In this document: one piece after another, positions 4,116 through 63,707 of the stretch | How the letters are laid out: every line of letters begins with the position of its first letter | How positions within the stretch are numbered: the first letter of the stretch is position 1 | Assembly (NCBI GenBank): GCA_965214125.1 | Contig: CBDCBA010000011.1 | Span: 1-64,000, forward strand | Direction: 5' to 3' | From: Tepidisphaeraceae bacterium | GTDB lineage: Bacteria; Planctomycetota; Phycisphaerae; Tepidisphaerales; Tepidisphaeraceae | DNA: 64,000 nucleotides | Made by a program: the position numbers and the translations under genes | Notes under the pieces: generated by a model | What the model saw: the letters and a program-made list of their open reading frames with translations, nothing else | What the model was told of the DNA's origin: nothing | Database searches by the model: none

Positions 4116-5408
4116 ATGACCATCGCCCCGCCCCGCCCGCCTGTTCCCGCGCACGTTGAGCCGGAGGAGGTTCGCCTCCACGCGGCCGACATGGCGGTGG
4201 TCGCGTCGGCGGACGTGACGCTGGGCCAACTCCAAGCTCAGCTCGCCACCGTTGAGCCGCACCCGCAGTGGTTGCCGATCGACGGCGACGAGGACGCAAC
4301 GCTCCGCGAACTTGTTGAGCACGACTCGACGGGCCCGCTGCGCTTGGGTTACGGCGGCTGGCGCGACCGGCTGACGGGCGTGCAACTTCTCGACGGCGAC
4401 GGCCAGCGCATCACCGCCGGCGGGCTGCCAGTCAAGAACGTCGCCGGCTACGACCTCGTCCGCTTCGCCGTTGGCGGGCACGGGTGCTTTGGGCGGGTCG
4501 AAACCATTACCGTCCGCACCGCCCTGCGACCCGAGGCGGGCCTGACGGTCGAACTGCCGATCGAGCAGGGCCAACTAACGACGACAGTAAACCGCCTGCT
4601 CGTCAGCAATGCCCCGCCGCAGTGGATGCTTTGCCGCGCCGGCCTCCTGCGCTGCGGCTGGCTCGGGGACGACGCCGACCTCGACGCGCTCGCCCCGGCC
4701 ATCCGCGCGATTGCGGGCGTCGCTGCGACGCGGCAATCGCTCGCGCAGGACGCCGCCCTGCGTCGCGTCGCGCTGGCGCCGGTCCGGGCGTGGGTGCCGC
4801 CGTCGGGGATCGAGGGGTTGCTGCGCGGGGCTGATCGTCCGGGGTCGGACCCAGCCGCAAGCGACTGGGCGTTCGGAGAAACGGATGGTGAACGGCGTGT
4901 GTGCGGGACACAGAATGCGTTGCCCGCATCGACTCCCGATTCAACGTCCACGTCGAGCCTTGGTCGGACGTCCACATCGAGCCCCGACTCAACATCCACA
5001 TCGACTCCCATTACGTCTCCCACATCGGCGAAAAATCCATTGTCCACGTCGACTCTCGATCCGTCTTCGACGTCGAACCTCGAACCGTTGTCTGCGTCGA
5101 CTTCCAATCCGTCACCCCCGTCGTTATCCGATCCGACGAACGCCCAGTCGCTTGCGGCTGGGTCGGGGCCCGATCCGCACCCCGACCTGTGGGCGGATCC
5201 CATCCACGGCATCGTCTACCTGCCCCACCTGCCTGACGATTGCGACACGATCCTCAACGCCGGCGGCCACGTGACGGCGGTCGAGGGGCACGTGGTGCGG
5301 GTTTGCTCGCCGCACGCCCCATCGCCGTTGCTATCGCCGTTGCTCGCGGCGTTGAAGGCGCGGTTCGATCCTGACGCCAAGCTGCCGGCCTTGCCGACAT
5401 ACGCTTGA
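4116..5408 (+). CDS. GlcE-like FAD-linked oxidase subunit (N-terminally short) carrying an in-frame ~300-bp repeat insertion
   Basis: AADMAVVASADVTLGQLQAQL...LPID and GGLPVKNVAGYDLVRFAVGGHGCFGRVETITVRT resemble the FAD-binding PCMH domain of glycolate oxidase GlcE; the C-terminus ends ...KARFDPDAKL. The next gene is glcF-like (4Fe-4S/CCG). Residues ~245-345 are an S/T/P-rich 8-aa periodic insert encoded by an IR-flanked element (see repeat 4848..5164). Confidence 0.65.
   Translation: MTIAPPRPPVPAHVEPEEVRLHAADMAVVASADVTLGQLQAQLATVEPHPQWLPIDGDEDATLRELVEHDSTGPLRLGYGGWRDRLTGVQLLDGDGQRITAGGLPVKNVAGYDLVRFAVGGHGCFGRVETITVRTALRPEAGLTVELPIEQGQLTTTVNRLLVSNAPPQWMLCRAGLLRCGWLGDDADLDALAPAIRAIAGVAATRQSLAQDAALRRVALAPVRAWVPPSGIEGLLRGADRPGSDPAASDWAFGETDGERRVCGTQNALPASTPDSTSTSSLGRTSTSSPDSTSTSTPITSPTSAKNPLSTSTLDPSSTSNLEPLSASTSNPSPPSLSDPTNAQSLAAGSGPDPHPDLWADPIHGIVYLPHLPDDCDTILNAGGHVTAVEGHVVRVCSPHAPSPLLSPLLAALKARFDPDAKLPALPTYA
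4848..5164. mobile_element. IR-flanked ~317-bp insertion-like element inside the glcE-like CDS (28-bp perfect terminal inverted repeats; interior of degenerate ~24-bp tandem repeats; lower GC)
   Basis: Left arm gacccagccgcaagcgactgggcgttcg (approximately 4848-4875) is the exact reverse complement of the right arm cgaacgcccagtcgcttgcggctgggtc (approximately 5137-5164). The interior contains ~8 degenerate units built on a gtccacgtcgaNcc/cgtcgac core, period ~24 nt. The host reading frame is open on both strands. Confidence 0.6.
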
Positions 5409-10782: not shown

Positions 10783-11856
10783 ATGCTACGGATTCGGCCG
10801 GTCGCCGAGCGCGACCTCGACCCGCTCGCCAACCTGGTCGCCCTCACGCGCGGCGGCATCACCACGTTGCCGACGGATCGCGACCAGCTCGCCAAGCGCA
10901 TTCACCAAAGCTGCGGCGCCTTCGCCCACGAGGCCGACCGGCCCGGTGGGGAGCTCTACAGCTTCGTCCTCGAGGACGACCGCCAGCCCGGCCAACTGCT
11001 CGGCACGAGCAGCATTGTCAGCAAGACCGGCGGGTTCGACCCGTTCTACTGCTACGAGGTGCGCGAGGAGCACTACCAGAGCGACGTGCTGAAGGTCGAC
11101 CGGCTCGTCCGCTCGATTCACCTCGTCGAAGACCACAGCGGCCCTGCGGAGGTCGGCGGACTATTCCTCAGGCCCGGCGTGCGCGGGGGCGGGTTCGGGC
11201 GGCTGCTGAGCGTCGCGCGATTTCTCTTTATGGCCGGTCGGCCTAAGGCCTTCGACCCACACGTCGTCGCCGAGATTCGCGGCGTGGTCGACGAGGCGGG
11301 CAACAGCCCGTTCTGGGACGCGATCGGCCGACACTTTTTCGGGGTCTCCTTCGCCGAGGCCGACCAGCTCAGCGTGAAGGAGAAGCAGATCATCGCCGAC
11401 CTGATGCCCGACCACCCGATTTACCTCGACATGCTGCCGCAAACCGCCCGCGCCGTTGTCGGCGTGGAACACGACTTCTCGCGCCCCGCGCGGCGGCTGC
11501 TCGAAAGCGAAGGGTTCGGCTTCCGCGAGCGCGTCGACATCTTCGACGCCGGCCCGACCATCGAGTGCCCGCTGGCCAACATCCGCGCGGTTCGCGCGAG
11601 CCGTGTCGCCGAGGTGGCGGACCTGTGCGACGCAGACGACGACGCGGCCGACGTGCTGGTTTGCAACGACCGCCTCGACTTCTGCGCCTGTCCGGCCAGC
11701 ATCTTCGAGACGGACGCGGGTGTGCAGATCAGCGCGTCCGCCGCCGCCGCTCTGAATGTCAGGCCCGGTCAGAGCGTTCGCTACGTCTCCCTTCGCCCCC
11801 ACCACCCCCACCATCCCCGCTCGTCGCCGGACCTGACGATCCCGATGGAGGCTTGA
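10783..11856 (+). CDS. astA: Arginine N-succinyltransferase
   Basis: N-terminus MLRIRPVAERDLDPL and overall length/pattern match AstA; followed by astD- and astB-like genes. His-Pro-rich C-terminal tail (RPHHPHHPRSSP). Confidence 0.8.
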   Translation: MLRIRPVAERDLDPLANLVALTRGGITTLPTDRDQLAKRIHQSCGAFAHEADRPGGELYSFVLEDDRQPGQLLGTSSIVSKTGGFDPFYCYEVREEHYQSDVLKVDRLVRSIHLVEDHSGPAEVGGLFLRPGVRGGGFGRLLSVARFLFMAGRPKAFDPHVVAEIRGVVDEAGNSPFWDAIGRHFFGVSFAEADQLSVKEKQIIADLMPDHPIYLDMLPQTARAVVGVEHDFSRPARRLLESEGFGFRERVDIFDAGPTIECPLANIRAVRASRVAEVADLCDADDDAADVLVCNDRLDFCACPASIFETDAGVQISASAAAALNVRPGQSVRYVSLRPHHPHHPRSSPDLTIPMEA

Positions 11857-11877: not shown

Positions 11878-13299
11878 GTGGAACTCCTCTCGAATAATCC
11901 GGCGACGGGCGACGTGGTGTGGCGTGGACCCTCGTCCTCCACATCGGACGTGGCCGATGCCGTCGCAGCCGCCCGCGCGGCCCAGCCGGCGTGGGCAGCG
12001 CGACCGAGCGAGGAGCGCCGCGCGATTCTCACCCGCTTCGCCGAGCTCGCGACGGAGCGCAAGTCGGACCTGGCCGACCTCATTCTCACCGAAGCCGGCC
12101 GCGTGCGGAGCGACGCCAACGCCGAGGCCGGCGCGGTGGCGGGCAAGGTGAAGCTCACGTTCGCCGCCCTCGACGGGCGTCGGGCGGACGAGCGCCACGA
12201 TCTTGGCAACGGCCTTGTCGGCCGGGTGACGCACAAGCCGATCGGCGTCCTGGCGGTGCTCGGGCCGTTCAACTTCCCGATGCACCTCGCCAACGGCCAC
12301 CTCGTGCCGGCCCTGCTGACGGGCAACGCCTGCGTCTTCAAGCCAAGCGAGCTCACGCCCGCGTGCGGCGAACTGCTCGCATCGCTCTTCCACGAAGCCG
12401 GCGTGCCGGAGGACGTGCTGCGCGTCGTCCAGGGCGGTCGGGAGACGGGCGAGGCCCTTGTCGGGGGCGATGTGGACGGCGTGCTGCTCACCGGCAGTGA
12501 CCGCGCTGCCGAGGCTATCTACAAGACGCTGCGCTATGACCAACTGCTAGCGGTCGAGGCCGGCGGAAACAACCCGCTCGTCGTTCACGGGCCCGTCGAC
12601 GTCGAGCAGGCCGTCAAGCTGACGATCGAGTCCGCCTACGTCTCCGCAGGCCAACGATGCACGTGCGCCCGTCGACTAATCGTGACCGATGACGTGCCGA
12701 ACGAGTTTATCGATAAGCTCGTCGCCGCCGTTCGCGAGGTGAGGGTTGATCTGCCGGAGAACGACCCGCTGGTCGGCCCGCTCATTTCGCAGCGTGCCGT
12801 CGATGCCTTGCTCGAGGCGCAGCGTCAGTTGCTTGACGCGGGCGCGACGGCGCTCGTCGCAGGGTCGAGCGCGGCAGACCTGCGACGCGTGGCGTCGCAG
12901 CTACCCGGTGGTGGCGCGTTTGTTTCCCCAGGATTGATGGATACCACAGGTGTCGGTGCGCCCGATGCCGAAGTGTTCGGACCCCTTCTGCAACTCGAAC
13001 GTGTCGACACTTTTGAGGGCGCGATCCACGCGGCGAACGCCACGCGGTACGGCCTTGCGGCCGGCTTAGTTGGCGGCACGCGCGAGGAGTTCGAGCGGTT
13101 CCTACACAAAAGCCGCGCCGGCTGCGTGAACTGGAACCGTCCGCTGACCGGCGCCAGCGGCAAGCTCCCCTTCGGCGGCGTCGGGCGTAGCGGCAACTCC
13201 CGCCCCGCCGGCTCGACGAGCATCGACTACTGCACCTACCCGGTCGCGACGCTCGAAGAAGAAGACTCACCACGGAGGCACGGAGACACGGAGGAGTAA
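11878..13299 (+). CDS. astD: Succinylglutamate-semialdehyde dehydrogenase (aldehyde dehydrogenase family)
   Basis: Aldehyde dehydrogenase fold (GPFNFPMHLANGHLVPALLTGNACVFKPSELTP; catalytic Cys region AGQRCTCARRL); its position between astA and astB supports AstD. GTG start. Confidence 0.8.
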   Translation: MELLSNNPATGDVVWRGPSSSTSDVADAVAAARAAQPAWAARPSEERRAILTRFAELATERKSDLADLILTEAGRVRSDANAEAGAVAGKVKLTFAALDGRRADERHDLGNGLVGRVTHKPIGVLAVLGPFNFPMHLANGHLVPALLTGNACVFKPSELTPACGELLASLFHEAGVPEDVLRVVQGGRETGEALVGGDVDGVLLTGSDRAAEAIYKTLRYDQLLAVEAGGNNPLVVHGPVDVEQAVKLTIESAYVSAGQRCTCARRLIVTDDVPNEFIDKLVAAVREVRVDLPENDPLVGPLISQRAVDALLEAQRQLLDAGATALVAGSSAADLRRVASQLPGGGAFVSPGLMDTTGVGAPDAEVFGPLLQLERVDTFEGAIHAANATRYGLAAGLVGGTREEFERFLHKSRAGCVNWNRPLTGASGKLPFGGVGRSGNSRPAGSTSIDYCTYPVATLEEEDSPRRHGDTEE

Positions 13300-13359
13300 G
13301 CTGTTGCTTCGGCCTCTGAAGCCAATCTCTCCTCTCCGTGTCTCCGTGCTTCCGTGGTG
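13268..13359 (+). promoter_or_regulatory. Imperfect ~29-bp inverted repeat spanning the astD 3' end and the astB translation start
   Basis: caccacggaggcacggagacacggaggag (astD codons for PRRHGDTEE + stop) pairs with ctcctctccgtgtctccgtgcttccgtggtg, whose 3' end contains the GTG GTG start of astB; 32-nt spacer. Confidence 0.5.
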
Positions 13360-14715
13360 AACTACTCCGAATACAACTTCGACGGCCTCGTCGGCCCCAC
13401 GCACAACTACGCCGGGCTCGGCAGCGGGAACCTGGCGTCGATGTCGAGCAAGGCCAGCGTCAGCCACCCGCGGGCGGCGGCGTTGGAGGGCCTCTCGAAG
13501 ATGCGCCTCCTCGCCAACCTCGGCGTGCCGCAGGCGATCCTCCCGCCGCAACGTCGGCCACACCTAGGCTACCTGCGAAGCTGCGGGTACGGCAGTAAAC
13601 CGGCCGAGGTTCTTGAGAATGCCGCAAAGGCCGGCGACGCGGGTCGGCGCGATCTGGCGATTGCCAGCAGCGCCAGCAGCATGTGGGCCGCCAACGCCGC
13701 GACGGTCTCGCCCAGCCCCGACACGGCCAACGGCCGGTGCCACTTCACGATCGCCAACCTCGCCAGCCAGCGCCACCGGGCGCTGGAGTCGTTCGAGCGG
13801 CTGACGATCTTTGAGCACCTGTTCGGCGACGGGCGGTACTTCAAGGTCCACCCGCCACTGCCAAGCACGTTGCCGGACGAGGGGGCGGCGAACCACACGC
13901 GGTTGAGCGGCTTCGATTTTGAACTGGGCTACCACATCTTCACCTACGGGTTCGACGCGACATCCAGCCTAATACAAGGGAAGTTCCAGCCGCGACAATC
14001 GCTTGGTGCTTCGCGGCGGATCGCGGAGCAGCACGGGCATGTTTTCCAGTTTCCGTCGGGTGCCGAGTGCTTCGTGAAGCAGACGCAGGAGGCGATCGAG
14101 GCAGGCGTGTTCCACAACGACGTCATCAGTGTCGGCAACGAGTTCGTGCTGTTGATCCACGAGCATGCGTGGGTCAATCAGCCGACGGCGGCCGATGCCG
14201 TTCACGACGCCATGCACATCGCCGGTGTCGATGAGGTGCGGATGACATTTACAGACAAAGAACTGCCAATAGCGGAAGCGGTTCAGTCTTACCTCTTCAA
14301 CTCGCAGCTCGTCACGCTGCGTGGAATCAAGGGCGAAGACAACTGGGAGTGCAAGATGGTCCTCGTCTACCCCGCCGAGTGCGAGGAGATCCCGTCGGCG
14401 AAGGCGGCGATCGAGCGCATCCTGCGGGAGGACAATCCCGTCCAGCACGCCGTGCGGGCGGACGTCCGCCAGAGCATGCGCAACGGCGGCGGGCCGGCCT
14501 GCTTACGGCTGCGGGTCGTGCTGAGCGACGAGGAGAAGGCTGCTGTCCGCGGGAACGTCTTCTGGACGCCGGCGCTGCACGACACGCTCGTCGATTGGGT
14601 CACGCGGCACTACCGCGAAGCCCTCACGCCCGCCGACTTGGCCGACGTGCGGCTGTACGAAGAGAGCGAGACGGCCCTCGACGAGCTGGCGGAGATTCTG
14701 CAACTGCCGATCTGA
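13354..14715 (+). CDS. astB: N-succinylarginine dihydrolase
   Basis: VNYSEYNFDGLVGPTHNYAGLGSGNLAS closely parallels the AstB N-terminus ([24 protein letters not shown]); full-length ~450 aa. GTG start. Confidence 0.85.
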   Translation: MVNYSEYNFDGLVGPTHNYAGLGSGNLASMSSKASVSHPRAAALEGLSKMRLLANLGVPQAILPPQRRPHLGYLRSCGYGSKPAEVLENAAKAGDAGRRDLAIASSASSMWAANAATVSPSPDTANGRCHFTIANLASQRHRALESFERLTIFEHLFGDGRYFKVHPPLPSTLPDEGAANHTRLSGFDFELGYHIFTYGFDATSSLIQGKFQPRQSLGASRRIAEQHGHVFQFPSGAECFVKQTQEAIEAGVFHNDVISVGNEFVLLIHEHAWVNQPTAADAVHDAMHIAGVDEVRMTFTDKELPIAEAVQSYLFNSQLVTLRGIKGEDNWECKMVLVYPAECEEIPSAKAAIERILREDNPVQHAVRADVRQSMRNGGGPACLRLRVVLSDEEKAAVRGNVFWTPALHDTLVDWVTRHYREALTPADLADVRLYEESETALDELAEILQLPI

Positions 14716-14716
14716 C

Positions 14717-14790
14717 GTAGGGTGGGATTCATCCCACCATCGGCGGCGGGAAGGGTGCGACCACGGATGGTGGGATGAATCCCACCCTAC
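14717..14790. repeat. REP/MITE-like palindromic element, family A copy 1 (GTAGGGTGGGATTCATCCCACC...GGTGGGATGAATCCCACCCTAC)
   Basis: 22-bp arms that are themselves internally palindromic (tgggattcatccca), ~30-nt spacer; starts 2 nt after the astB stop. Confidence 0.85.
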
Positions 14791-14910: not shown

Positions 14911-17900
14911 ATGGATCAGGTCGCCAGCGCCCCACCGCCGTCCGAGTCCCCCGCCGCGCCCGTCCCGGCCGCGACGGCGACCGCCACGCAGTTCACCTGG
15001 CACGACGGCCGCCTCTGGCGCTGGTCCGCCGACGACGCCGGCACCGACCTGCGAGTGGGCTTGCCCGATGGCGAACGCCGTGTGGCCGCGAGCGTCGTCA
15101 CCGGCCGGGCGATGCTTGACGCCGTCACCGACCTTGCCCACGACGCCGCCGACTCCGCCCAATGCCTCGCGACCCTCGCGGAGTTCTCGCGAAACGCAGT
15201 CGCCTTGGAGCAGTTTTACCCGTCGGCCCGGCGCGCAGGTGGGCGGCACGGCGGCGTGGTTGCGTCGTGGCGGCTGCTCGTGGGGGACCCGTCGGACGTG
15301 GAGCGCATCGAGAGCTTTGCCGCCGCAATGCCGGCCGCGTGCTTCTGCGCGGACGAGCCGTTCCACGCGACCGACCGTCTTGAACTTGTCGAAAGCTTCC
15401 TCGACGCCTGCTGCGACACGATTGTGCGGCGAAGCTTGGCGAAGGACGAGTTCTTCGCCGGCGTTCACGAACGCGCGGCGGATCCGGTGGCGGACGTGGA
15501 GGTGCGCTGGGTCTCCGCCCTCGTGGCCGACCCGGATGAGATCGTCGAATCCCCCGAAAAAACGCTCGTTCGCGGTCGCGACAACGAGGTGGCGGAACTG
15601 CTCGACAAGGTGCAGACCTGGACCAGCCGCCTGGGCGACGCTGGCGGCGAGCCGTGGCGGCTGGGCTTCTTGCTCGAAGAACCCGCAAGCGACGACGAGA
15701 ACGGCGTCTGGCCGCTGCGGTGGCAGCTCTTGCCGCCGTTGGAACTTTCGGATCACCACGTGCCGCTACCGGCCGAACAGGTGTGGGAGCAACCCGCCGG
15801 CAGCATCGGCTACGTTGGGCGAAACGCGGTGCGGCTGCGCGAGCGGATGGGGGCCGAGCTCAAGCGGGCGGCCGAGGTGCTGCCACCGCTGAACGATCTT
15901 CTGGGGGAGTGGCCGGGGCGGGGCGGACCGTCGAAGCTGATGCTCGACGGGGGCAACGCCTTCCGCGTCCTGCGCGACCACGCCGAGGCCCTCAGCGACG
16001 CCGGCTTCGACGTGCAACTGCCCGGCTGGGCGAATCAGAAGGAAAACCGGCTGGAAGTGGTGATGGACCTTCAGCCAGCCGCCGGCACCGAGGAGGCGTA
16101 CGCGGCCTCGCAGGGGGCGCTCGGGCTCGACGCGCTCTTGACCTTCAACTGGAAGATCAGCGTCGGCGGGGACCAGATCACGATGGACGAGTTCCGGGCG
16201 CTCGTCGACCGGCAGGTGCCGCTAATCCGGCGCGGCGGGCGGTGGATCGAGGTCGACCCGCAGGCGGCGCTGGCGGCGGCCGAGATGATCGAGCGCCGCC
16301 CGCCGGGCACCATCTCGCTCGGCGAGGCCTTCCGTGCCGGCTTCGGGTTGGGCGAGTTCCGCAGCAGCAACGGCACGTCGCCGGCCATCCGACTTGAAGG
16401 GACCGAGTGGGTCGACAAGCTGCTCGAGCAGGCCCCGGACGACGCGGCCAAGGCGTTGCCGCAGCCCGAGCAGTTCACCGGTGAACTGCGGCCTTACCAG
16501 TTGCGTGGCTTACAGTGGATGGCCTTCCTCGACCGCGTGGGCCTCGGCGGCGTGCTGGCGGACGACATGGGCCTGGGCAAGACGATCCAGCTCATCGCCC
16601 TACTGCTCCACGAGCGCGAGCGCGCCAACGCCGCGAACGAAGCGAATGGCGATCAGGCCGTGCAGACGAAGCCGACGCTGCTGTTCGTCCCCACGAGCGT
16701 GCTGGGCAACTGGGCCCGCGAACTGCGTCGTTTCGCTCCGCTCTTGAAGGTCTTGCCCCACCACGGGCCGGGCCGCTCGCGCGGCGAACGCTTTGCCGAA
16801 GATGCCTCAAAGGCGGACGTGGTCGTCACGAGCTACGCCCTGTCGCATCGCGACCAGGAAGACTTGCGTCGCGTCCGCTGGGGCCGCGTGGCGCTGGACG
16901 AGGCGCAAAAGATCAAGAACCCGCAGGCGGCCAGCAGCATCGCGGTCCGCTCCATCGCCGCTGGCCGCAAGATCGCTCTCACGGGCACGCCCGTCGAGAA
17001 CCACCTCGGCGAGCTGTGGAGCATTATGGACCTGCTCAACCCCGGCCTGCTCGGCACGCAGGGGGAGTTCCGCGAGCGCTTCGCGATCCCGATCGAAAAG
17101 CACGGCGACCGCGCCCGCGGGCGGCGCTTGCGCGAGATGATCCGCCCGTTCGTGCTGCGGCGCACGAAAGACGAGCCAGAGGTCGCGGCCGATTTGCCGG
17201 CAAAGATGGAGATGAGCGTCTTCTGCGGCCTGACCGCTGAACAGGCGGCGATCTACGAGCGCATTACCAGCGATATGCTCGGCCGCATCGATACGGCCAC
17301 CGGCATCCGCCGGCGCGGGCTGATCCTGAGCGTGCTGACGAAGCTCAAGCAGGTCTGCGACCACCCGGCGCTGCTGGCCGAAGAAAATGTCGACAAGAAG
17401 AATCCCGATCAGGCCCAGGTGTCGATCAACCGCAGCGGCAAGGCCCAGCGGTTGGCGGAGATGCTCGAAGAGGTGATCGAGGAAGGGCAAAAGGCCCTGA
17501 TTTTCACGCAGTATCGCAAGATGGGCGATCTGCTCGTGCCGATGCTGGAGAAGGCGCTCAAGCGGCCGGTGCTGTTCCTGCACGGCGGCACGCCGCAGCA
17601 GAAGCGCGACGATATGGTGCAGGATTTCCAGAACATTTCCACGAAGGACGGCGGAGCGCCGATCTTCCTCCTGAGCCTTCGCGCCGGCGGACTGGGCCTG
17701 AACCTGACGGCGGCCAGCCACGTCTTTCACTTCGATCGCTGGTGGAACCCGGCCGTCGAGAACCAGGCAACCGACCGCGCCCACCGCATCGGCCAGACGC
17801 GCCGCGTGCAGGTCCACAAGTTTGTCACGCTCGGCACCGTCGAGGAGCGCATCGACAAGATGCTGGCGGAAAAGAGCGCCCTCGCCCAGAACATCGTCGG

Positions 17901-18057
17901 AAGCGGCGACGAATGGCTGACCGAGCTCTCCACCGGCGAGCTGCGCGAGTACCTGTCGCTGTCGCGGTCGGACCTGAGCGACCTCGACCTGGGTGATGAC
18001 GATGACGACGAAGAACTTCCCTCATCCGCCAGCCTCGCGGGCGTGGAGGCCGCATGA
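14911..18057 (+). CDS. SNF2-family helicase with ~500-aa N-terminal domain (SWIM-like Cys/His patch)
   Basis: [35 protein letters not shown] (motif I), DEAQKIKN (motif II), ...[10 protein letters not shown], and C-terminal helicase motifs ([44 protein letters not shown]). N-terminal [11 protein letters not shown] patch; a conserved [20 protein letters not shown]...[10 protein letters not shown] segment precedes the ATPase. Confidence 0.9.
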   Translation: [1048 protein letters not shown]

Positions 18058-21668: not shown

Positions 21669-21756
21669 CCAAACCGCGTTGCAACGCAACGCTGGTCCGG
21701 CTTTCCGCGTCGCTGCACGTTCGCTCAGACCAGCGTTGCGTTGCAACGCGGTTTGG
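21669..21756. repeat. REP-C copy 2 (29-bp IR ccaaaccgcgttgcaacgcaacgctggtc / gaccagcgttgcgttgcaacgcggtttgg)
   Basis: Lies between nth and the downstream membrane-protein gene on the minus strand; shares the aaccgcgttgc...gcaacgcggtt core with copies 1 and 3. Confidence 0.75.
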
Positions 21757-23233: not shown

Positions 23234-23291
23234 GCGGGCGGCAGCATAACGGGTGCGCGATCTGCGAAGTGGTGCCGCGGTTCTCTTTCGC

Positions 23292-23360
23292 GTTAGCCGC
23301 CCCGCCTCGCGGGGCGAGCGCGTGGCCATCGAGCGCCCCGCGAGGCGGGGCGGCTAAAGG
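23292..23360. repeat. REP-like palindromic element, family B copy 1 (TTAGCCGCCCCGCCTCGCGGGGCG ... CGCCCCGCGAGGCGGGGCGGCTAA)
   Basis: ~23-bp GC-rich arms with ~20-nt spacer, in the divergent region between the lpxI-like (-) and PqqD-like (+) genes. Confidence 0.8.
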
Positions 23361-23441
23361 GGAACCGCCAGATCAGGCGCAGTTCCATCGCTTCCTCAGG
23401 AACAGGCGCAAGCGGGCGCGTCGCGCGTAACGTGACGCCGC

Positions 23442-29569: not shown

Positions 29570-29660
29570 CCTACGGCCGCGTGCGTCATCACACGCCGCT
29601 CGCGTGGGGTAGCCGCGGATCTTAATCCGCGCTTCGGTTCCCGATCGGTGTGCGGCGCGC
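29570..29660 (+). ncRNA. Candidate structured RNA / regulatory leader in a 460-bp intergenic region (unclassified)
   Basis: ggtagccgcgg ... ccgcggctacc closing stem (11 bp) enclosing the nested hairpins gcggat-ctta-atccgc and ggacc-aa-ggtcc. No match to any ncRNA family I can recognise by eye. Confidence 0.2.
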
Positions 29661-30025
29661 GGACCAAGGTCCGCGGCTACCACCGGACAACAATGATGCA
29701 AGATGGGTGAATGTCGGTGGCACGTGGAAGCCGCGCTGGCGGGAGATTTCCTCGCGCACCGATGCGCCTCGCGGGCGTTTGGATGGGAGACTGGTGCAAT
29801 CGTGCAGCCTCAACCCTTGCCGCCGACGGTCACGCCTGAACCGGCGAGGGCGCGTCGGGCCGGCTGGCACCGGCTTTGCGATCTTCCCGTTCGACCGTCG
29901 CGCTGTTGAACCCCCGCGCAGCGGCCGATGAACGAGTGGCATGCGCCGCCGTTCGCCGACATGAGTCTCGCTCGTCACCACCAAGCGAGGTCGGCACCGT
30001 TTGTTCAAACCCGCGCTTCTTCCCA

Positions 30026-45413: not shown

Positions 45414-46526
45414 TCAGGCACCAAAATATCGTGCGTGCGCAGAGCGGGCCGCCGACAGGTCGGTCGTGCCCTGCACGATCACGCGGGCGTCGCGGAAGGC
45501 GGTCATGCGGATCGATGGTCGATCGGCCGGCGTAAAGCGGAGCATCATCGGCGTCTGCGACACCTCGCCGAGCGGGCGGAGTTTCGCGGCGAGAATGTCC
45601 AGCTTCCACGTCGCGTTGGGCGTGCGAAGTTGGACCGCACCGCGGCCGCACAGGGCGACGGCGTCGCCTGCGGGTTGGTCGAGGAAAGGGAACTCGTGGC
45701 GGGCGCAGCAGGGACAAGTTGGGTCTTTCGCGGACGACAGGTCGATTGTGCGGAACTCGCCCGTCCAGACGTCGAACGCTTGCAACGCGCGCGGCGGGTC
45801 GCCGCTGACGAGCGTGCGAATCGCGAGGGCGGCCTGTAGATTGCCGACAATTCCCGACGCCGCCGCGAGGATGCCGGCGGTGTCGCACGTCTCCAACTCC
45901 CCCGGCGGCGGCGGATCGCGGAAGACGCAGCGCAGGCAAGGACCCGCCTCCGCCGTAGGGTGGGATTTATCCCACCTCTGGTTCGATTGATCCGACTCGC
46001 CGGATGGTGGGATGAATCCCACCCTACCCAGAGCCATCGCCCTTCCCTCCGTGCCGACGGCGGCGCCGTAGATCCACGGCTTGCCACGCTTCACCGCAGC
46101 GTCGTTGAGCAGGTACCGCGTGGCGGCGTTGTCGGTGCCGTCAACGATCAGGTTGGCCTCCTCGACGAGGGCGAGGACGTTGTCGACATCGACGTCGACT
46201 GGCCGCGGTTCGAGGGAAATCGAAGAGTTGACGCGCTGCAACCGCTCGGCGGCGGCGACGGCCTTGGGGCGGCTGTCGGTCGCGTCGGCTTCGTCGTACA
46301 GGGTTTGACGTTGGAGATTGGTCACCTCGACCAAATCGCGATCGATCAAGATCAGCCGGCCGACGCCGGCGCGGGCGAGCGAGTCGGCGGCAACGGTGCC
46401 GAGCGCCCCGCAGCCGAGGATGGCGACGGTAGCCTCCGCGAGCCGAGCCTGGCCGGCGTCGCCGATCTGCGGGAGAAGGGTTTGGCGGTGGTAGCGGTCC
46501 GGCACGGGTTCATAGGATACGGGCAA
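45414..46526 (-). CDS. ThiF/MoeB/HesA-family E1-like adenylyltransferase with in-frame REP insertion and ~100-aa C-terminal extension
   Basis: RYHRQTLLPQIGDAGQARLAEATVAILGCGALGT (Rossmann GxGxxG), LILIDRDLVEVTNLQRQ and two CxxC pairs (CLRC ... CPCC). Residues GRVGFIPPSGESDQSNQRWDKSHPT are encoded by REP-A2 (45955..46027). TTG start at 46526, or GTG at ~46505. Confidence 0.75.
   Translation of the reverse strand: MPVSYEPVPDRYHRQTLLPQIGDAGQARLAEATVAILGCGALGTVAADSLARAGVGRLILIDRDLVEVTNLQRQTLYDEADATDSRPKAVAAAERLQRVNSSISLEPRPVDVDVDNVLALVEEANLIVDGTDNAATRYLLNDAAVKRGKPWIYGAAVGTEGRAMALGRVGFIPPSGESDQSNQRWDKSHPTAEAGPCLRCVFRDPPPPGELETCDTAGILAAASGIVGNLQAALAIRTLVSGDPPRALQAFDVWTGEFRTIDLSSAKDPTCPCCARHEFPFLDQPAGDAVALCGRGAVQLRTPNATWKLDILAAKLRPLGEVSQTPMMLRFTPADRPSIRMTAFRDARVIVQGTTDLSAARSAHARYFGA
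45955..46027. repeat. REP-A copy 2, inserted in-frame within the ThiF/MoeB-like CDS
   Basis: gtagggtgggatttatcccacc...ggtgggatgaatcccaccctac; translated in the host frame as GRVGFIPPSGESDQSNQRWDKSHPT. Confidence 0.85.
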
Positions 46527-46957
46527 TGGCAGACGACACCCTCGACAAGGACATCCTCGACGCCGCCCAAACGCTCGGCGATCTCATCGCCAAGCACCCG
46601 GCGATCGAGAAGTATGCCGACGCCCAGAAGGCCCTGCGCGACGACAAGGACGCCGGCCGCATGCTCCAGCAGTTCGAGCAAAAGGCGATGGTCCTGGCCC
46701 GCAACGAGCAGTACGGCCAGCCCGTCAGCGCCGCCGACCGGCAGGAGCTCGAAACGATGCAGGCCAACCTCGCGAGCAACCTGCGCGTGAAGGCGTTCAG
46801 CATCGCCCAGACCGACATGACCGATTTGCTCCGCAAGGTCAGCCAGACGTGGCAGAAGCCCGTCGCCAAGGCACAGGGCGAAGACGATCAGCCGCAAGGC
46901 CAGGACGAGTTTGGCGGCGTCAGCGGCGGCGGTATGGGCGGGTTGCAGATGCCGTAG
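46526..46957 (+). CDS. YlbF/YmcA-like (DUF964) regulatory protein
   Basis: LDAAQTLGDLIAKHPAIEKYADAQKALRDDKDAGRMLQQFEQKAMVL...ELETMQANLASNLRVKAFSIAQTDMTDLLRKV follows the YlbF-family helical pattern; Gly-rich C-terminus. Its ATG abuts or overlaps the divergent ThiF-like start. Confidence 0.5.
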   Translation: MADDTLDKDILDAAQTLGDLIAKHPAIEKYADAQKALRDDKDAGRMLQQFEQKAMVLARNEQYGQPVSAADRQELETMQANLASNLRVKAFSIAQTDMTDLLRKVSQTWQKPVAKAQGEDDQPQGQDEFGGVSGGGMGGLQMP

Positions 46958-47025
46958 GGTGGGATTCATCCCACCATCGGGTCAACAAGTTGCTGCATTC
47001 GGAGGTGGGTTGAAACCCACCCTAC
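46954..47025. repeat. REP-A copy 3 (variant right arm ggtgggttgaaacccaccctac)
   Basis: Begins at or overlaps the stop of the YlbF-like gene; 9 nt before the EVE gene start. Confidence 0.8.
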
Positions 47026-47034
47026 ATTGTCGAC

Positions 47035-47436
47035 ATGGCCTACTGGTTGTTGAAGACGGAGCCGGATGTCTACTCGATCAACGACCTCGAGCGCGACAAG
47101 TCGACCGTTTGGGACGGCGTGACGAACAACGCCGCGCTGAAGAACATCCGCGCCATGCACCGCGGCGACGGGTGCCTGATCTACCACACGGGCAAAGAAC
47201 GCGCGGCCGTCGGTATCGCGAAGGTCACGAAGGGGCCGCACCCGGACCCGGCAGAGGACGACGAGAAGCTGGTCATCGTGACCGTGAAGTTTGTGAAGAA
47301 GTTTGAGGCGCCTGTCACTCTTGCGATGGTGAAGGCCGAGGAGCAACTCGCCGATTGGGACCTTGTCCGACAGTCGCGACTGAGCGTGGTGCCGGTGTCG
47401 GACGAGCAGTGGAAGTGGGTGTGTGAGAAAGGATGA
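47035..47436 (+). CDS. EVE-domain (PUA-like, DUF55) protein
   Basis: MAYWLLKTEPDVYSINDL...VWDGVTNNAALKNIRAMHRGDGCLIYHTG is the canonical EVE N-terminal pattern. Confidence 0.7.
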   Translation: MAYWLLKTEPDVYSINDLERDKSTVWDGVTNNAALKNIRAMHRGDGCLIYHTGKERAAVGIAKVTKGPHPDPAEDDEKLVIVTVKFVKKFEAPVTLAMVKAEEQLADWDLVRQSRLSVVPVSDEQWKWVCEKG

Positions 47437-47529
47437 AGGCAGAAGGATGAAGGATGAACCCGACCCGGAGCCGAGGCAGACGTCTCCGGTTCGGGCTCAG
47501 GTTCATCCTTCATCCTTCTGCCTTCATCC
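47431..47529. repeat. Large AT-richer hairpin: perfect 30-bp inverted repeat (ggatgaaggcagaaggatgaaggatgaacc / ggttcatccttcatccttctgccttcatcc) with a 39-nt loop that contains its own hairpin
   Basis: Left arm starts in the EVE-gene stop codon; right arm ends ~10 nt from the stop of the convergent MacB permease gene. The arms contain internal gaagga(t) direct repeats. Confidence 0.8.
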
Positions 47530-47538
47530 TTTCCGCGC

Positions 47539-55994: not shown

Positions 55995-56630
55995 TCACGC
56001 GGTGGCAGATTGAACGTCGTTGTCGATGACCACGTCGAACGACTCGGGCGGGCAGACCTGGGCGAAATAGTGCCGCTCGACCGGCGGCCAGACCTCCCGC
56101 CAAGCGCCAAGGTCGAGGTAGTCGGCGTCGCCGCGACCCTCGACCCGCCGCCGCCGCTCGGCTTCGGGCTGCCGCACGAGCACCCGCAAATCGACCAGAT
56201 CTACCAGCGGCGGCGAGCAGGAATAGGAACCCTCCATCACCACAATCGGCCGTGGCGCAAGCTCGCTCGGCTCGTCCCGCAGCGCGTACGTGCCGCGTTG
56301 GCTTAACCCGGCGAGGAAGTCGAACGCATGCCACCGCGCGGCCCGGCCTTCGCGGAGGGGGCGCAGCACGTCGTCGCGCACGCGCTGCCAGTCGAAGACG
56401 TTTTGCAACCGATCTTCGATCGACAGCTTCAGCAGGTCGGACTCGGGAATGCTCGTCTGGTAGAAGTCGTCGAGCGTGAAGAGTGCGGCGTCGAGCCGCC
56501 GCGCGAGCGCCGCCCCAAGCGTCGATTTGCCCGCCCCGCTGCCGCCGTCGATCGCGACGACGAGCGGCCGACCGAGCAAGGCCCGCCGGTCGGCGATCAA
56601 GTCGAGGAGATGGCCGATGCCGGTGGGCAT
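55995..56630 (-). CDS. P-loop kinase (uridine-kinase/AAA-like NTPase)
   Basis: LVVAIDGGSGAGKSTLGAALARRL Walker A; DDFYQTS; ~210 aa. The ATG shares one nt with the upstream GNAT gene stop. Confidence 0.6.
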   Translation of the reverse strand: MPTGIGHLLDLIADRRALLGRPLVVAIDGGSGAGKSTLGAALARRLDAALFTLDDFYQTSIPESDLLKLSIEDRLQNVFDWQRVRDDVLRPLREGRAARWHAFDFLAGLSQRGTYALRDEPSELAPRPIVVMEGSYSCSPPLVDLVDLRVLVRQPEAERRRRVEGRGDADYLDLGAWREVWPPVERHYFAQVCPPESFDVVIDNDVQSATA

Positions 56631-57475
56631 CACGTTGCCTCGCCCTTCGGCCGCGCGCGGACCTCGGCTCTCACTGAGGACATCATGCCGCCGCACGAGA
56701 TGAACCCGCGGCCCCAGTGCAGGCCGACCGAGCCGGGGTTCGCCAGCATCGCGTTGCTGGCCAGGTAACGGTGGCCGTCCTCCCGAAGCGCCGCCGCCAC
56801 CTCGTGCAGCAGCCGGCCGGCGATGCCGTGCTCGCGGAACAGCCAGTGGACGAAGATCCAATCGAGCATCGGCGGCTCCGTCCTCGCGACGTCGTCGGGC
56901 AGCCCCCACATCTTCGCGTCACGAACCACCAACGCGGCGCCGACCGGCACCGCGGTCTGCGACGTTTCCCCGTCCTTCTCTCGCGTCATGTGCAGGATCG
57001 CGAGCCGACACGCCCGCGGAACCAGCGGCCCATCGCCGCCGTTGCGCACATCGTGGATGACCCGCGTGGCGATGCGGTCGTGCAGCCGTCGGTGCCACAT
57101 GCTCAGCGGCATCTCGTTGTGCATCGCCAGGTGGAACGCCTCGGCGACCGACGGCCAGTCGTCGTCGCCGATCATCCTGGTCTCGAGCCGGCCGTGACTC
57201 GTGGCGTCGTCGGCCGGCTCGTCGGCGAGGCGGTCGAGGGGCAGGTAGCACGGCATCTGCTTCGGCCGCGCGGTGTAGCGGGCCACGCCGTCCCAATACT
57301 CGTTCTTGTAGTCGGCGACGCGGGGGAAGCGCTGCCATTGCCGCCAGGTCATTGGCTGCCTGCGATACCGCCACAACCGCCAGTAGAAGGACTCCGCCAT
57401 CGCCGTCACATCGTACCCGTGCTCGTTGTGTGCGGAACACCCCGTGTTGACGCGACCGAGGGCGCGACGAGACAT
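56630..57475 (-). CDS. GNAT-family N-acetyltransferase with ~150-aa N-terminal domain
   Basis: C-terminal LDWIFVHWLFREHGIAGRLLHEVAAALREDGHRYLASNA carries GNAT motif A (R-x-x-G-x-A). The longest ORF would begin inside REP-B2; the start is chosen at MSRRALG. Confidence 0.55.
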   Translation of the reverse strand: MSRRALGRVNTGCSAHNEHGYDVTAMAESFYWRLWRYRRQPMTWRQWQRFPRVADYKNEYWDGVARYTARPKQMPCYLPLDRLADEPADDATSHGRLETRMIGDDDWPSVAEAFHLAMHNEMPLSMWHRRLHDRIATRVIHDVRNGGDGPLVPRACRLAILHMTREKDGETSQTAVPVGAALVVRDAKMWGLPDDVARTEPPMLDWIFVHWLFREHGIAGRLLHEVAAALREDGHRYLASNAMLANPGSVGLHWGRGFISCGGMMSSVRAEVRARPKGEAT

Positions 57476-57485
57476 CCGCGTGTCC

Positions 57486-57554
57486 GTTAGCCGCCCCGCC
57501 TTGCGGGGCGCGTGGCCGGCCACCGAGCGCCCCGCGAGGCGGGGCGGCTAAAGG
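57486..57554. repeat. REP-B copy 2
   Basis: Near-identical to copy 1 (gttagccgccccgccttgcggggcg ... cgccccgcgaggcggggcggctaaagg), in the divergent region between the GNAT gene (-) and the membrane-protein gene (+). Confidence 0.8.
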
Positions 57555-57606
57555 CGCCACACGCGAGGACGCGGCCGACTGATCGTGTTGTCGGTACGTT
57601 GGCGGC

Positions 57607-60582: not shown

Positions 60583-62034
60583 ATGCGACGCTTTTGCCTC
60601 CATCTCGCGATCGCCGCCGTGGCGTGTCCCGCGGCCCTCGCCTCCGCGCAGACCACGACGCCGTCGCTGGCCGACCTGGGCGACTTCGAGGACGCGGTGC
60701 GGGCATCGCGCGACGACCTGGTGCGTGCCGCCCGCGCGGACGCGGTGGACCGGCTCTTCCTGGCCGTCAAAGCCGAGGCGCTGGCGCCGGGATTGACCGT
60801 CGGCGGGATGCTCGGCCAGCTCAACGATGGCGCGGCCCGGCGCGTGCGGCAGGCGCTCGAGGACGCGCCGCAGATCGGTGGCCCACGGTTCGCAGCGCCC
60901 GGCACGGCGCAGGTGCAGCTTCAAGCCGGCGGCGAGTTGGTGGCCGCGGCGCTGCGGCGCGAGCTGGCCCGCGATGGCGCTGCCGATCGGCTGCCGGAAA
61001 GCGTCTCGTTCGCCCACATCGAGCGCACCCTGCGCCGCTGGACAGGCCGAAACTTCGTCGCGCTCGGCCGCAGCGTGACGCCGGAGATGGCGCTGGGTGC
61101 CCTGCCGCGCGACGGGGCGGGCACCAACTCGCGGATCGAGCCGCTCGACCCCGAAACCGGCTGGCCCGCCGTTCCCGATGAGGCGCGGCAGCGGGCGTTC
61201 GTCGAGGCGCGACGCGAGGTGATGGAGCGCCTGATGACCGCCGCCCGGCCGGTGCCGCTGGCGAGCGAGTCCGACGACCCCGAGTCGTCGCAGGAAGTTC
61301 CGGCCGGCACGCTCGGCGACCTCTTCGACCTCGGCCGCGTCGGCGAGCAGTCGCGTCGCTACCTCGCCGCCCGACCGGTCACGCGGATCGCCTTCGCCGA
61401 CGAGCGCCAGATCCGCGTGAGCCTGTCCCTCGACCCGGCGGACTGGGTGGCGCGGCTCCGCGGCGATTTGGAGGAGATTCCCAATGCCCCGGCGCTCGAC
61501 GACCGCCAGTGGGCGGAGGTCATCACACGCCTCGCCGCGGCGCTGCCGGAGGAGGTCACGGGCACCGCCGTCGCGGAGGCGCCCGGCGACGGATCGCCGC
61601 GGGTGGCCGATCCGGAGGCGAACACTTTGGTCGCGGCGTTGCGGCCGCTCGTCGATCCAACCGACGCCGCCGCCGTCGTGCCGCAGTGGTCCCGCCAGCT
61701 CATCGCCGCGACGGGGCAGGCGGGCTACGCAATCGAAGCGGACGAGCCGGATTGGCAGCAGTCGCGCAAGCGCCTGATCGCCGCACGTGCCGCCGAGCGC
61801 GACGCCCGCGCGGCACTGGTGGAGGCGTTGCGGGCGTTGCCGCTGGGCGAGCAGAGCACGCTCGGCGCCGTTGCCGACACCCACACGCCCACGAGCCTGC
61901 TGCTGGCCGCCGCGGCAGAATCGGCCACCGTCAAGGGCAGCGCCTACGACGACGCCAGCGGCCGTGTCGAGGTCTCGCTCACCGCCGACGGCCGCGCGCT
62001 GTGGCAGCAACTGATCTCCCTTGGCGGCAACTAA
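60583..62034 (+). CDS. Secreted hypothetical protein
   Basis: Signal peptide MRRFCLHLAIAAVACPAALASAQ; 483 aa, Ala/Arg/Asp-rich, no recognised domain. Lies between ispG and ispH. Confidence 0.5.
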   Translation: MRRFCLHLAIAAVACPAALASAQTTTPSLADLGDFEDAVRASRDDLVRAARADAVDRLFLAVKAEALAPGLTVGGMLGQLNDGAARRVRQALEDAPQIGGPRFAAPGTAQVQLQAGGELVAAALRRELARDGAADRLPESVSFAHIERTLRRWTGRNFVALGRSVTPEMALGALPRDGAGTNSRIEPLDPETGWPAVPDEARQRAFVEARREVMERLMTAARPVPLASESDDPESSQEVPAGTLGDLFDLGRVGEQSRRYLAARPVTRIAFADERQIRVSLSLDPADWVARLRGDLEEIPNAPALDDRQWAEVITRLAAALPEEVTGTAVAEAPGDGSPRVADPEANTLVAALRPLVDPTDAAAVVPQWSRQLIAATGQAGYAIEADEPDWQQSRKRLIAARAAERDARAALVEALRALPLGEQSTLGAVADTHTPTSLLLAAAAESATVKGSAYDDASGRVEVSLTADGRALWQQLISLGGN

Positions 62035-62083
62035 CGCCGATGTCGGACAAGCCTCGATCCGCTCGCGGCCGTACCGTCTGAGC

Positions 62084-63025
62084 ATGCGCATCTTGCTCGC
62101 CAACCCCCGCGGATTCTGCGCCGGCGTGCGGATGGCAATCGACGTGGTCGACCACGTCCTGCGCCACCAGGGGCCGCCGGTGTTCGTCTACCACGCGATC
62201 GTCCACAACAAGCACGTCGTCGACGACTTCGTCAGCCGTGGCGTGCGCTTCGTCGAGGACGTGGCCGCCGTGCCACGTGGAGCAACGGTCGTCTTCAGCG
62301 CCCACGGCATTCCCCCCGCCGTCCGTCAGCAGGCGGCCGAGCGGGATCTGGTCGTTCACGACGCGACGTGCCCGCTCGTTACGAAGGTTCACAACGAGGT
62401 CGTCCGCTACGCCCGCGAGGGATACCACATCATCTTCATCGGCCACCGCAACCACCAGGAGGCGATCGGCACGGTGGGCGAGGCGCCCGACGCAATGACG
62501 ATTGTTGAGACGCCCGAGGAGGCCGCGGTGTTGGACATCCCGCTCGACCAGAAGCTCGCGTACGCGACGCAGACGACGCTGAGCGTGACGGACGCGCAGC
62601 GGGTGATCGACGTGCTCGTGGAGCGTTTCCCGCACATTCGCCGGCCGCCGCGGGAGGACATCTGCTACGCGACGACCAACCGCCAGGACGCCGTGGGCGC
62701 TTGGGCGGCCGAGGCGGACGTCGTGCTCGTGGTCGGCAGCAAGAACAGCTCGAACAGCAATCGCCTCGTCGACCGCGCCGTCGAACTCGGCACGCCCGGC
62801 CATCTGGTGGATGATGAATCGGAGATCGACCCGCGGTGGCTCGATGGGGCCAAGACCGTGCTCGTCACCGCCGGCGCCAGCGCCCCGGAGGCGTACGTGG
62901 AGGGCGTTCTGGCCCGGCTCCAACAGGAGTTTGGTGCCCGCGTCGAAGAGCGCTCGCTGGCGGAGGAGAACGTGCAGTTCGCGCTACCGCGTACCGTTCG
63001 CAAGCTGGCGGTGGTGGGGTCGTAG
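62084..63025 (+). CDS. ispH: 4-hydroxy-3-methylbut-2-enyl diphosphate reductase (LytB)
   Basis: MRILLANPRGFCAGVRMAIDVV (Cys1), ...HDATCPLVTKVH (Cys2), ...DICYATTNRQ (Cys3), SSNSNRL. Start at M22 of the ORF. Confidence 0.9.
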   Translation: MRILLANPRGFCAGVRMAIDVVDHVLRHQGPPVFVYHAIVHNKHVVDDFVSRGVRFVEDVAAVPRGATVVFSAHGIPPAVRQQAAERDLVVHDATCPLVTKVHNEVVRYAREGYHIIFIGHRNHQEAIGTVGEAPDAMTIVETPEEAAVLDIPLDQKLAYATQTTLSVTDAQRVIDVLVERFPHIRRPPREDICYATTNRQDAVGAWAAEADVVLVVGSKNSSNSNRLVDRAVELGTPGHLVDDESEIDPRWLDGAKTVLVTAGASAPEAYVEGVLARLQQEFGARVEERSLAEENVQFALPRTVRKLAVVGS

Positions 63026-63042: not shown

Positions 63043-63105
63043 GTAGGGTGGGATTCATCCCACCTCCGGGTCCTCGTTCCGATGGTGGGATGAATCCCAC
63101 CCTAC
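63043..63105. repeat. REP-A copy 4 (shorter spacer)
   Basis: gtagggtgggattcatcccacctccgggtcctcgttccgatggtgggatgaatcccaccctac between convergent ispH and the HTH-receiver gene. Confidence 0.8.
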
Positions 63106-63122: not shown

Positions 63123-63707
63123 TCAGTACCGCACCTGCGTGGCTTTCTCGACGGCTTCGACGACGCGGCGGATGTGGAAGGGCTTCTTCAGGAAGGCGTC
63201 GAAGCCTTGATGGGTAAGGCGTTCGCCCTCTTCCTCGCTGAGTTGGCTGCTCATCGCGACGAGCTTGGTGAGCTGCAAATCGAGCGTGTGGCGGACAAGC
63301 TCCACCATCGCCTTGGGCTCGACGTCGGCGAGGTGAACGTCCACGAGGATGACGTGCGGCTTGGTCCGCCCCGCCGACACGCCGGCGGCGAAGGCGCTTT
63401 CGACGACCTCCACCTCGTACCGGGCCTCGTCCTCGAGGATCTTCTCGAGCACCTCCGTGACCTCGCGTTCGCGGTCGAGGATGAGCACGCGGGTGTTGCC
63501 GGTCTTGAGGCCGTTCAGCGGGATCGAGTGCTCCTTCATGAAGCGCACGAGCTGGTTGAGCGGGATGCGGCGATCCTTGGAGCCGGGAATGCGGTAGCCC
63601 TGGAGGCTGCCGGAGTCGAACCACTTGCTGACGGTGCGGGGGGCGACGTTGCAGATCTTGGCCACTTCGCCGGTGGTGAGCACGTCTTTGGCCTTGAGTT
63701 CTTGCAT
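63123..63707 (-). CDS. Response regulator with N-terminal MerR/excisionase-type HTH and C-terminal receiver domain
   Basis: LTTGEVAKICNVAPRTVSKWFDSGSLQGYRIPGSKDRRI (Xis/MerR-like HTH), then RVLILDREREVTEV...HVILVDVHLADVE...MSS...KP receiver. Start at M77 (GGAG 9 nt upstream); M39 at 63821 is an alternative. Confidence 0.65.
   Translation of the reverse strand: MQELKAKDVLTTGEVAKICNVAPRTVSKWFDSGSLQGYRIPGSKDRRIPLNQLVRFMKEHSIPLNGLKTGNTRVLILDREREVTEVLEKILEDEARYEVEVVESAFAAGVSAGRTKPHVILVDVHLADVEPKAMVELVRHTLDLQLTKLVAMSSQLSEEEGERLTHQGFDAFLKKPFHIRRVVEAVEKATQVRY

Follow-up and report, generated by a model that had tools for sequence, protein, structure and literature searches.

REP-associated tyrosine transposases (RAYTs) are HUH/Y1 enzymes related to the TnpA transposase of the IS200/IS605 family. 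In Escherichia coli, REP/BIME sequences are bound and cleaved by TnpA_REP and, when located in 3′ UTRs, are able to stabilise the upstream mRNA, while BIMEs also recruit IHF and gyrase via specific spacer motifs. REPs and REPINs are reportedly mobilised by RAYTs, as is said to follow from the work of Bertels & Rainey in 2011 and of Ton-Hoang/Messing in 2012 (PDB 4ER8). In several published accounts, a REPIN is a pair of REPs in inverted orientation with a short spacer between them, a unit thought to be RAYT-mobilised (PMC2817692; PMC3116915; PMC3337134; PMC5581495). Among the REPs described so far, that of Haemophilus influenzae Rd (GTAGGGTGGGCTTcAGCCCACC / ...CTTtAG...) is linked to the RAYT NP_438385 (Nunvar et al. 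2010, PMC2817692 Table 1), with close variants in Haemophilus parasuis (GTAGGGTGGGTCTTGACCCACC; PMC2817692 Table 1) and Cardiobacterium hominis (GTAGGGTGGGGCTTGCCCCACC; PMC4690160). Di Nocera et al. 2013 (PMC3733652) already report GTAG REPs from Planctomycetes, as well as REPs located within genes.

Here we analysed four inverted doublets in a 64-kb stretch of DNA (the whole stretch is referred to below as the window) with a GC content of 68.5%. Like the H. influenzae, H. parasuis and C. hominis REPs, the arms of these doublets carry a 5′ GTAG, an identical GGTGGG/CCCACC stem and a similar, T-rich 4-nt loop; as in the H. influenzae-type class, they form short-spacer inverted doublets, lie for the most part extragenically at gene 3′ ends, and recur beside RAYT genes of family NF047646 (in loci L123 and L147, described below). 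The loop-proximal base pair is the only part of the arm that differs, being C:G in the published class (CTTCAG) and A:T in the window (ATTCAT), and the hosts differ as well, with gammaproteobacteria on the one hand and a Phycisphaerae-like planctomycete of high GC content on the other. Judged by sequence, the window arm is a compensated variant of the published stem GTAGGGTGGG...CCCACC in which C:G has been replaced by A:T, and what is new here is this A:T variant of the REP class in a Planctomycetota genome.

Other described families resemble the window elements in part. The repeats that Di Nocera et al. 2013 (PMC3733652) surveyed across phyla, the PVC superphylum among them, are likewise GTAG stem-loops, often in head-to-head pairs downstream of unidirectional or convergent ORFs, with occasional copies inside ORFs that are thought to be tolerated in loops; the searched portion of that text contains neither a Phycisphaerae host nor a GGTGGG string, and it emphasises repair and replication genes, whereas the window copy is hosted by a MoeB/ThiF-like E1 enzyme. 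Rickettsia palindromic elements offer the parallel of a selfish palindrome residing in frame in a coding gene, adding a peptide while keeping the ORF, but PMC3733652 describes them as longer, Rickettsia-specific, CGTC-tagged and of undemonstrated RAYT association, and the window element does not belong to that family. E. coli REP/BIME sequences are also GTAG palindromes in alternating orientation, but with a longer stem and an unrelated sequence (GTAGGxxGGATAAGGCG...).

Anatomy and gene context of the four doublets

Using the 22-mer GTAGGGTGGGATTCATCCCACC with up to three mismatches allowed, we found exactly 8 matches in the 64-kb window, which form four inverted pairs (Table 1), compared with none in 100 of 100 dinucleotide-preserving shuffles (0 expected by chance vs. 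8 arms observed). Five arms are exact, one carries a single mismatch (ATTTAT) and one carries two (TTTCAA, a compensated pair), and no degenerate solo arms were found in the window beyond the four doublets. Each arm consists of GTAG followed by a perfect 18-nt palindrome (GGTGGGAT, TC and ATCCCACC in succession), with GTAG plus GGTGGGnTTnAnCCCACC being the reading of 8 of 8 window arms. Complementarity continues about 5 nt inward into the otherwise variable spacer (ATCGG...CCGAT), while the outer GTAG/CTAC ends mark a sharp limit of similarity among the copies, the sole exception in the alignment being one conserved C before GTAG. Folded alone, an arm takes the form ....(((((((....))))))) at -7.0 kcal/mol, with a 7-bp stem, a 4-nt loop and GTAG unpaired, and the doublets folded as single-stranded DNA reach -19.8 to -33.3 kcal/mol (z = -4.8 to -10.2). 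A search of the whole window against Rfam 15 at gathering score returned 0 matches.

Table 1 The four doublets of the window and the genes around them
Feature	Coordinates	Strand	Arms	Remarks
REPIN copy 1	14717-14790		14717-14738 (+), 14769-14790 (-)	both arms exact; 30-nt spacer
AstB gene	13354-14715	+		Pfam; copy 1 starts 2 nt past the stop (14715)
SNF2 helicase gene	14911-18057	+		Pfam; copy 1 lies 120 nt upstream; same strand as AstB
REPIN copy 2	45955-46027		45955-45976 (+, ATTTAT variant), 46006-46027 (-)	29-nt spacer; intragenic
ThiF/MoeB-like adenylyltransferase gene	45414-46505 (363 aa, database call); ORF 45414-46526	-		Pfam; host of copy 2
REPIN copy 3	46954-47025		46954-46975 (+), 47004-47025 (-, compensated TTTCAA variant)	28-nt spacer
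YlbF/YmcA-like gene	46526-46957	+		Pfam; stop codon is the TAG (46955-46957) in the GTAG of copy 3
EVE-domain gene	47035-47436	+		Pfam; ATG (47035) 9 nt past the end of copy 3
REPIN copy 4	63043-63105		63043-63064 (+), 63084-63105 (-)	both arms exact; 19-nt spacer; 17 nt from either stop of the convergent IspH and response-regulator genes
IspH/LytB gene	62021-63025	+		Pfam; convergent with the response-regulator gene; stop 63025
Response-regulator gene	63123-63935	-		Pfam; stop 63123

A GTAG tag with a palindrome in each arm is the defining anatomy of a REP, and a doublet with GTAG facing outward and a 19-30 nt spacer is a REPIN. REPs are expected to number tens to hundreds of copies per genome and to be over-represented and mainly extragenic, and at the level of the window we find 8 arms in 64 kb, with 3 of 4 doublets extragenic. 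These observations bear out a preliminary description of this DNA, which had listed four copies with 22-bp nested-palindrome arms at these positions and had placed three copies at gene ends and one inside a gene: copies 1, 3 and 4 lie within 0-17 nt of stop codons, and copy 2 lies inside the ThiF/MoeB-like gene. The family it had called REP-like can now be named as GTAG-tagged REP doublets, or REPINs, of the published RAYT-associated class, the exact arm flanking RAYT genes in relatives. Where homologues of the window's IspH and ThiF-like proteins are named, they belong to Planctomycetota, Phycisphaerae, Tepidisphaeraceae and Humisphaera, so that the source is a Phycisphaerae-like planctomycete. 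It is probably a MAG, as the window's own ThiF protein is recorded on a 74.5-kb contig (NCBI and ENA).

Arm covariation, distribution and RAYT linkage

For the analysis of covariation, we assembled partner arms by their similarity to the anchor arm and not by the search pattern. Stem pair 11-16 is C:G in 63 partner arms, A:T in 23, T:A in 5 and G:C in 4 (95% Watson-Crick), pairs 7-20 and 12-15 show switches from T:A to C:G, and GTAG is kept in 80 of 100 partner arms, a pattern which shows that the small hairpin is maintained by compensatory substitutions. With the window and the loci collected up to that point (L numbers) pooled, an inverted partner with GTAG outward is found downstream of 135 of 229 arms and upstream of 30 of 229, with median spacers of 22-23 nt.

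A scan of species-representative genomes with the degenerate arm GTAGGGTGGGnTTnAnCCCACC yielded at least 117 stretches, and the exact window 22-mer was found in 26 stretches of a metagenome scan. Among the matches listed from the degenerate scan, hosts include Pseudomonas/Stutzerimonas, Xanthomonadales, Neisseria, Acetobacteraceae, Rhodobacteraceae, Acidobacteriota and Planctomycetota-labelled contigs, most arms are of the CTTCAG (112) or CTTTAG (30) type, and none is of the ATTCAT type. We also observed the stem GTAGGGTGGG...CCCACC in loci L001-L117 and L153-L176, which span Gamma-, Beta- and Alphaproteobacteria, Acidobacteriota, Planctomycetota and predicted viral/prophage contigs. Phage carriage of the window variant is unsupported, because the viral contigs hold only CTTCAG and CTTTAG arm variants and no RAYT. 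A different arrangement was seen in a Sulfomarinibacteraceae MAG (L014, 5729-6242), where five same-strand CTTCAG arms recur every 123 nt exactly, as a tandem array and not as doublets.

No RAYT-like ORF is present in the 64-kb window. Candidate RAYTs in the fetched loci were picked up by a bait screen that served as a lead only, using a sequence we took to be that of a RAYT, and their identity was assigned by NCBIfam NF047646 (cut-off 80 bits) and by homology to PDB 4ER8, the alignment to 4ER8 confirming RAYT identity independently of the bait. Pfam Y1_Tnp barely detects these ORFs (1 of 5, at 23.1 bits), and the RAYTs beside CTTCAG arms in L067, L080 and L075 score 178-200 bits against NF047646. 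One candidate, L049, which had been taken as a RAYT with arms 1.27 kb apart, was rejected, the interval between its arms being a run of N.

The exact window arm itself accompanies RAYT genes in related genomes. In the metagenome contig L123, the ORF at 576-1145 is a RAYT (NF047646 170.5 bits; E = 5e-32 to E. coli TnpA_REP, PDB 4ER8) with intact HUH (DHLHLL) and Y..NPVKHG motifs, whose nearest named homologues come from Tepidisphaeraceae and Phycisphaerae, and exact ATTCAT arms lie on both sides of this ORF, at 426+, 508-, 1172-, 1208+, 1245+, 1289+ and 1327+. In a Tepidisphaeraceae MAG (L147, GCA_035998445.1), the RAYT gene is flanked by GTAGGGTGGGATTCATCCCACC (ATTCAT) and GTAGGGTGGGATTTATCCCACC (ATTTAT), both of which are variants found in the window, and the locus also holds a GGGGTTCATCCCC arm variant. 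In both loci, then, the same REP flanks the RAYT gene, which is the arrangement of a REPtron. Sister RAYT loci carry GGGGTTCATCCCC (L145, L148/L149) or GGGCGTACCCGCCC (L146). The planctomycete-type RAYTs share 62-69% identity with one another (51-59% for L146), with co-varying REPs, compared with about 43% identity to proteobacterial RAYTs (Pseudomonas, Xanthomonadales). Note additionally that the four exact same-strand REPs downstream of the L123 RAYT (1208-1348, with a spacing of 37-44 nt) make up a BIME-like cluster at this REPtron.

Copy turnover in the sister lineage and neighbouring repeat families

The preliminary description had proposed a presence/absence comparison across related loci, and this comparison distinguishes a polymorphic copy 2 from a conserved copy 3. 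A 4.9-kb contig from a sister lineage (L118) has the same EVE-YlbF-ThiF-PGM gene order as the window. Copy 2 is missing from the orthologous site, where the DNA alignment has a clean 72-nt gap and the empty site shows no target-site duplication; the exact junction is ambiguous at this divergence, since the arm-bounded element measures 73 nt and the net insertion 72 nt. L118 does carry copy 3, at the orthologous YlbF/EVE junction, where its TAG again serves as the stop codon; the arm reads ATTCAT in L118 vs. TTTCAA in the window, a double compensatory change. Copy 2 was gained after the split from the sister lineage and is the only clear gain event seen; copy 3 was in place before that split and has been retained.

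For copy 4, we used a 12.9-kb contig from the same sample as L118 (L150), which is syntenic with 51.4-63.0 kb of the window, encodes an IspH 91% identical to that of the window, and contains no arm of the family formed by the four window copies anywhere in its 12.9 kb. Copy 4 has no counterpart there, a comparison confounded by the fact that synteny stops exactly at the IspH stop. The region downstream of IspH holds a different palindrome in L150, yet other GTAG hairpins in a further relative (L152), and copy 4 sits at a rearrangement-prone hot spot. One gain, one retention and one hot-spot copy fit what has been described for REPINs, which persist for long periods and are copied from time to time.

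Copy 2 keeps the reading frame of the ThiF/MoeB-like gene into which it is inserted and adds about 24 residues to the protein (GRVGFIPPSGESDQSNQRWDKSHP), its minus-strand reading being G RVGFIPPSGESDQSNQRWDKSHP T. The added peptide separates the strand that ends in ...EGRAMA from the zinc-motif cysteines of PCLRC, at a point where the alignments with E. coli MoeB (1JW9) and Uba4 (6YUB) are interrupted or gapped. The window protein has 363 aa, compared with 339 aa for its closest homologue (P0002, on L118; 79% identity); the orthologues, which lack the insert, are 335-349 aa long, most of the other listed homologues are around 340 aa, and all ten aligned homologues have a 24-residue gap at the element-encoded peptide. 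In an AlphaFold2 model of the host protein (mean pLDDT 79.5, pTM 0.76), the E1-like core is predicted to be well folded, while the insert (approximately residues 164-184) has pLDDT <50 and lacks secondary structure, as would fit a tolerated surface loop that is predicted to be disordered. Copy 2 can be read without a stop in three of its six frames, and its in-frame survival is therefore plausible under purifying selection. We propose that copy 2 survives because of its length and frame, as a net 72 nt with an open frame would add a stop-free disordered surface loop to the MoeB/ThiF-like enzyme.

We also observed palindromic repeats of other kinds in the window and in its relatives. A second REPIN-like doublet family occupies 23286-23364 and 57484-57554, with arms TTAGCCGCCCCGCCT(C/T)GCGGGGCG forming an 8-bp stem and a 3-nt loop; its tag is TTAG instead of GTAG, and L151 and L152 hold the similar GTAGCCGCGGGGCC(T/C)GCCCCGCG. 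The roughly 1-kb segment containing the 57.5-kb copy of this family (56577-57593) has no counterpart in the sister contig L150. A third inverted doublet, GTAG-tagged and present as a single copy in the window (29609-29680; GTAGCCGCGGATCTTAATCCGCG / GTAGCCGCGGACCTTGGTCCGCG), suggests that several REP families, possibly with several RAYTs, are present in this genome. A solo GTAG hairpin at 12880-12904 on the minus strand (GTAGCTGCGACGCCACGCGTCGCAG), inside the ORF at 11878-13299, belongs to a family that forms doublets in L152, and could be either chance or a second intragenic REP.

Further inverted repeats are found as well. Directly after the EVE-gene stop, between convergent genes, 47427-47533 forms an inverted repeat with 47-nt arms (91% complementary, GGATGAAGG-rich) that is absent from the orthologous L118 junction, and is thus a polymorphic palindromic insertion of a non-GTAG type. 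A perfect 29-nt inverted repeat with a 30-nt spacer lies at 21669-21756 (CCAAACCGCGTTGCAACGCAACGCTGGTC), and a similar GCGTTGC...GCAACGC core palindrome is found in L150 (approximately 10960-11060) downstream of IspH, where the window has copy 4. Within the ORF at 4116-5408, a 60-nt inverted repeat (4840-4899 / 5113-5172) is 78% complementary, with its arms 213 nt apart. Finally, the 20.9-kb relative L152, whose IspH gene has 80% nucleotide identity, contains about 17 GTAG hairpins from at least three other families, such as GTAGGGCCGGCACTGCCGGCC and GTAGCTGCGGTCCTGCGGACCGCAG, so that REP content in this clade is dense and families turn over between lineages.

Competing readings and what the doublets mean

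We consider it highly probable that the four elements are REPINs, that is, non-autonomous mobile doublets of GTAG REPs moved in trans by a single-copy RAYT. Such a RAYT would recognise GTAG and the adjacent small hairpin on single-stranded DNA; the cognate enzyme would be encoded elsewhere in the source genome, and transposition would proceed through ssDNA. Where the hairpins at gene 3′ ends are transcribed, they would act as neutral or mildly useful 3′ structures and not as canonical terminators.

An improbable alternative, though the best placed of those we weighed, holds that the doublets are host-encoded regulatory hairpins (terminators, attenuators or 3′-end mRNA stabilisers) that are under selection and immobile. 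The position of 3 of 4 copies within 0-17 nt of stop codons, the very stable doublet folds, the retention of copy 3 between the YlbF and EVE genes in both lineages, accompanied by a compensatory change, and the roles of REPs in mRNA stability that PMC3733652 recounts would all fit such hairpins. However, copy 2 is intragenic, in the coding frame and a lineage-specific insertion, and the exact arm brackets transposase genes elsewhere. Canonical intrinsic termination in particular, the terminator role that the preliminary description had raised, is unsupported: a T-run follows none of the copies on either strand, terminator scans were empty at all four, and there is no U-tract or Rho-independent terminator at any of the 4 copies. 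Transcript 3′-end protection, or a modulation of cistron coupling at copy 3, is possible, and such a secondary transcript effect is compatible with the REPIN reading while being no substitute for it.

It is very unlikely that the elements are classical MITEs, i.e., deletion derivatives of IS elements with a DDE transposase, which move via their terminal inverted repeats and leave target-site duplications. They share with MITEs a short length (63-74 nt), a non-coding nature, terminal inverted repeats (22-31 nt), dispersal and presence/absence polymorphism, but no direct duplication flanks any copy (TGAC/GGCG, CGCC/CCAG, TGCC/ATTG and GCCC/GGGT for copies 1-4), and the empty site in L118 is also without one. 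Each of the supposed terminal repeats is moreover a GTAG-tagged hairpin, the signature of a REP, and the sole transposase found beside the arms belongs to the Y1/HUH RAYTs instead of the DDE enzymes. The earlier label "MITE-like" is true only if it loosely means any element that is not autonomous; it fails in the sense of a classical MITE, since target-site duplications are absent and the ends are GTAG hairpins, not the terminal inverted repeats of a DDE-type IS.

We give equally little credence to the view that the doublets are relics, meaning vertically inherited REPINs that lost their RAYT and are now decaying and immobile. Such a history could account for the lack of a RAYT in 64 kb, for the two arm substitutions of an old copy 3 and the one of copy 2, and for the finding of one copy only in about 18 kb of the sister lineage. 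Against it, 5 of 8 arms match the consensus 22-mer, both arms being perfect in copies 1 and 4, and this argues for recent copying or active maintenance; copy 2, furthermore, was gained after the sister-lineage split, and RAYTs flanked by the exact arm exist in the same clade. A reading as a CRISPR-like array was rejected.

With the REPIN reading preferred, no accepted view is overturned, and an unannotated repeat family is filed correctly; the published REP class and its RAYT partners are extended into Phycisphaerae-like Planctomycetota. Only three points go beyond the routine: a copy that sits in frame, a stop codon donated by the element and a REP stem conserved from phylum to phylum. More speculatively, and in our estimate with the odds clearly against it, the GTAG-GGTGGG-loop-CCCACC REP and its RAYT may represent one ancient or occasionally horizontally transferred cognate pair, whose hairpin would have stayed near-unchanged across Pasteurellaceae, Pseudomonas, Xanthomonadales, Neisseria, Phycisphaerae and Acidobacteriota as the RAYTs diverged to about 43% identity, with planctomycete exaptation into coding sequence (the 24-aa MoeB/ThiF-like loop and the conserved stop of the YlbF-like gene). 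If true, this would fit poorly with the view that REPIN-RAYT systems are confined to their lineages and passed on strictly vertically.

For annotation, these elements explain over-long ThiF-like calls and mark synteny breakpoints and intergenic hot spots. They also provide a natural example of a REPIN tolerated in frame in an enzyme gene and of a REP donating a conserved stop codon, and a REP stem that is nearly identical in different phyla, alongside strongly diverged RAYTs, offers a handle on the co-evolution of RAYT-DNA recognition.
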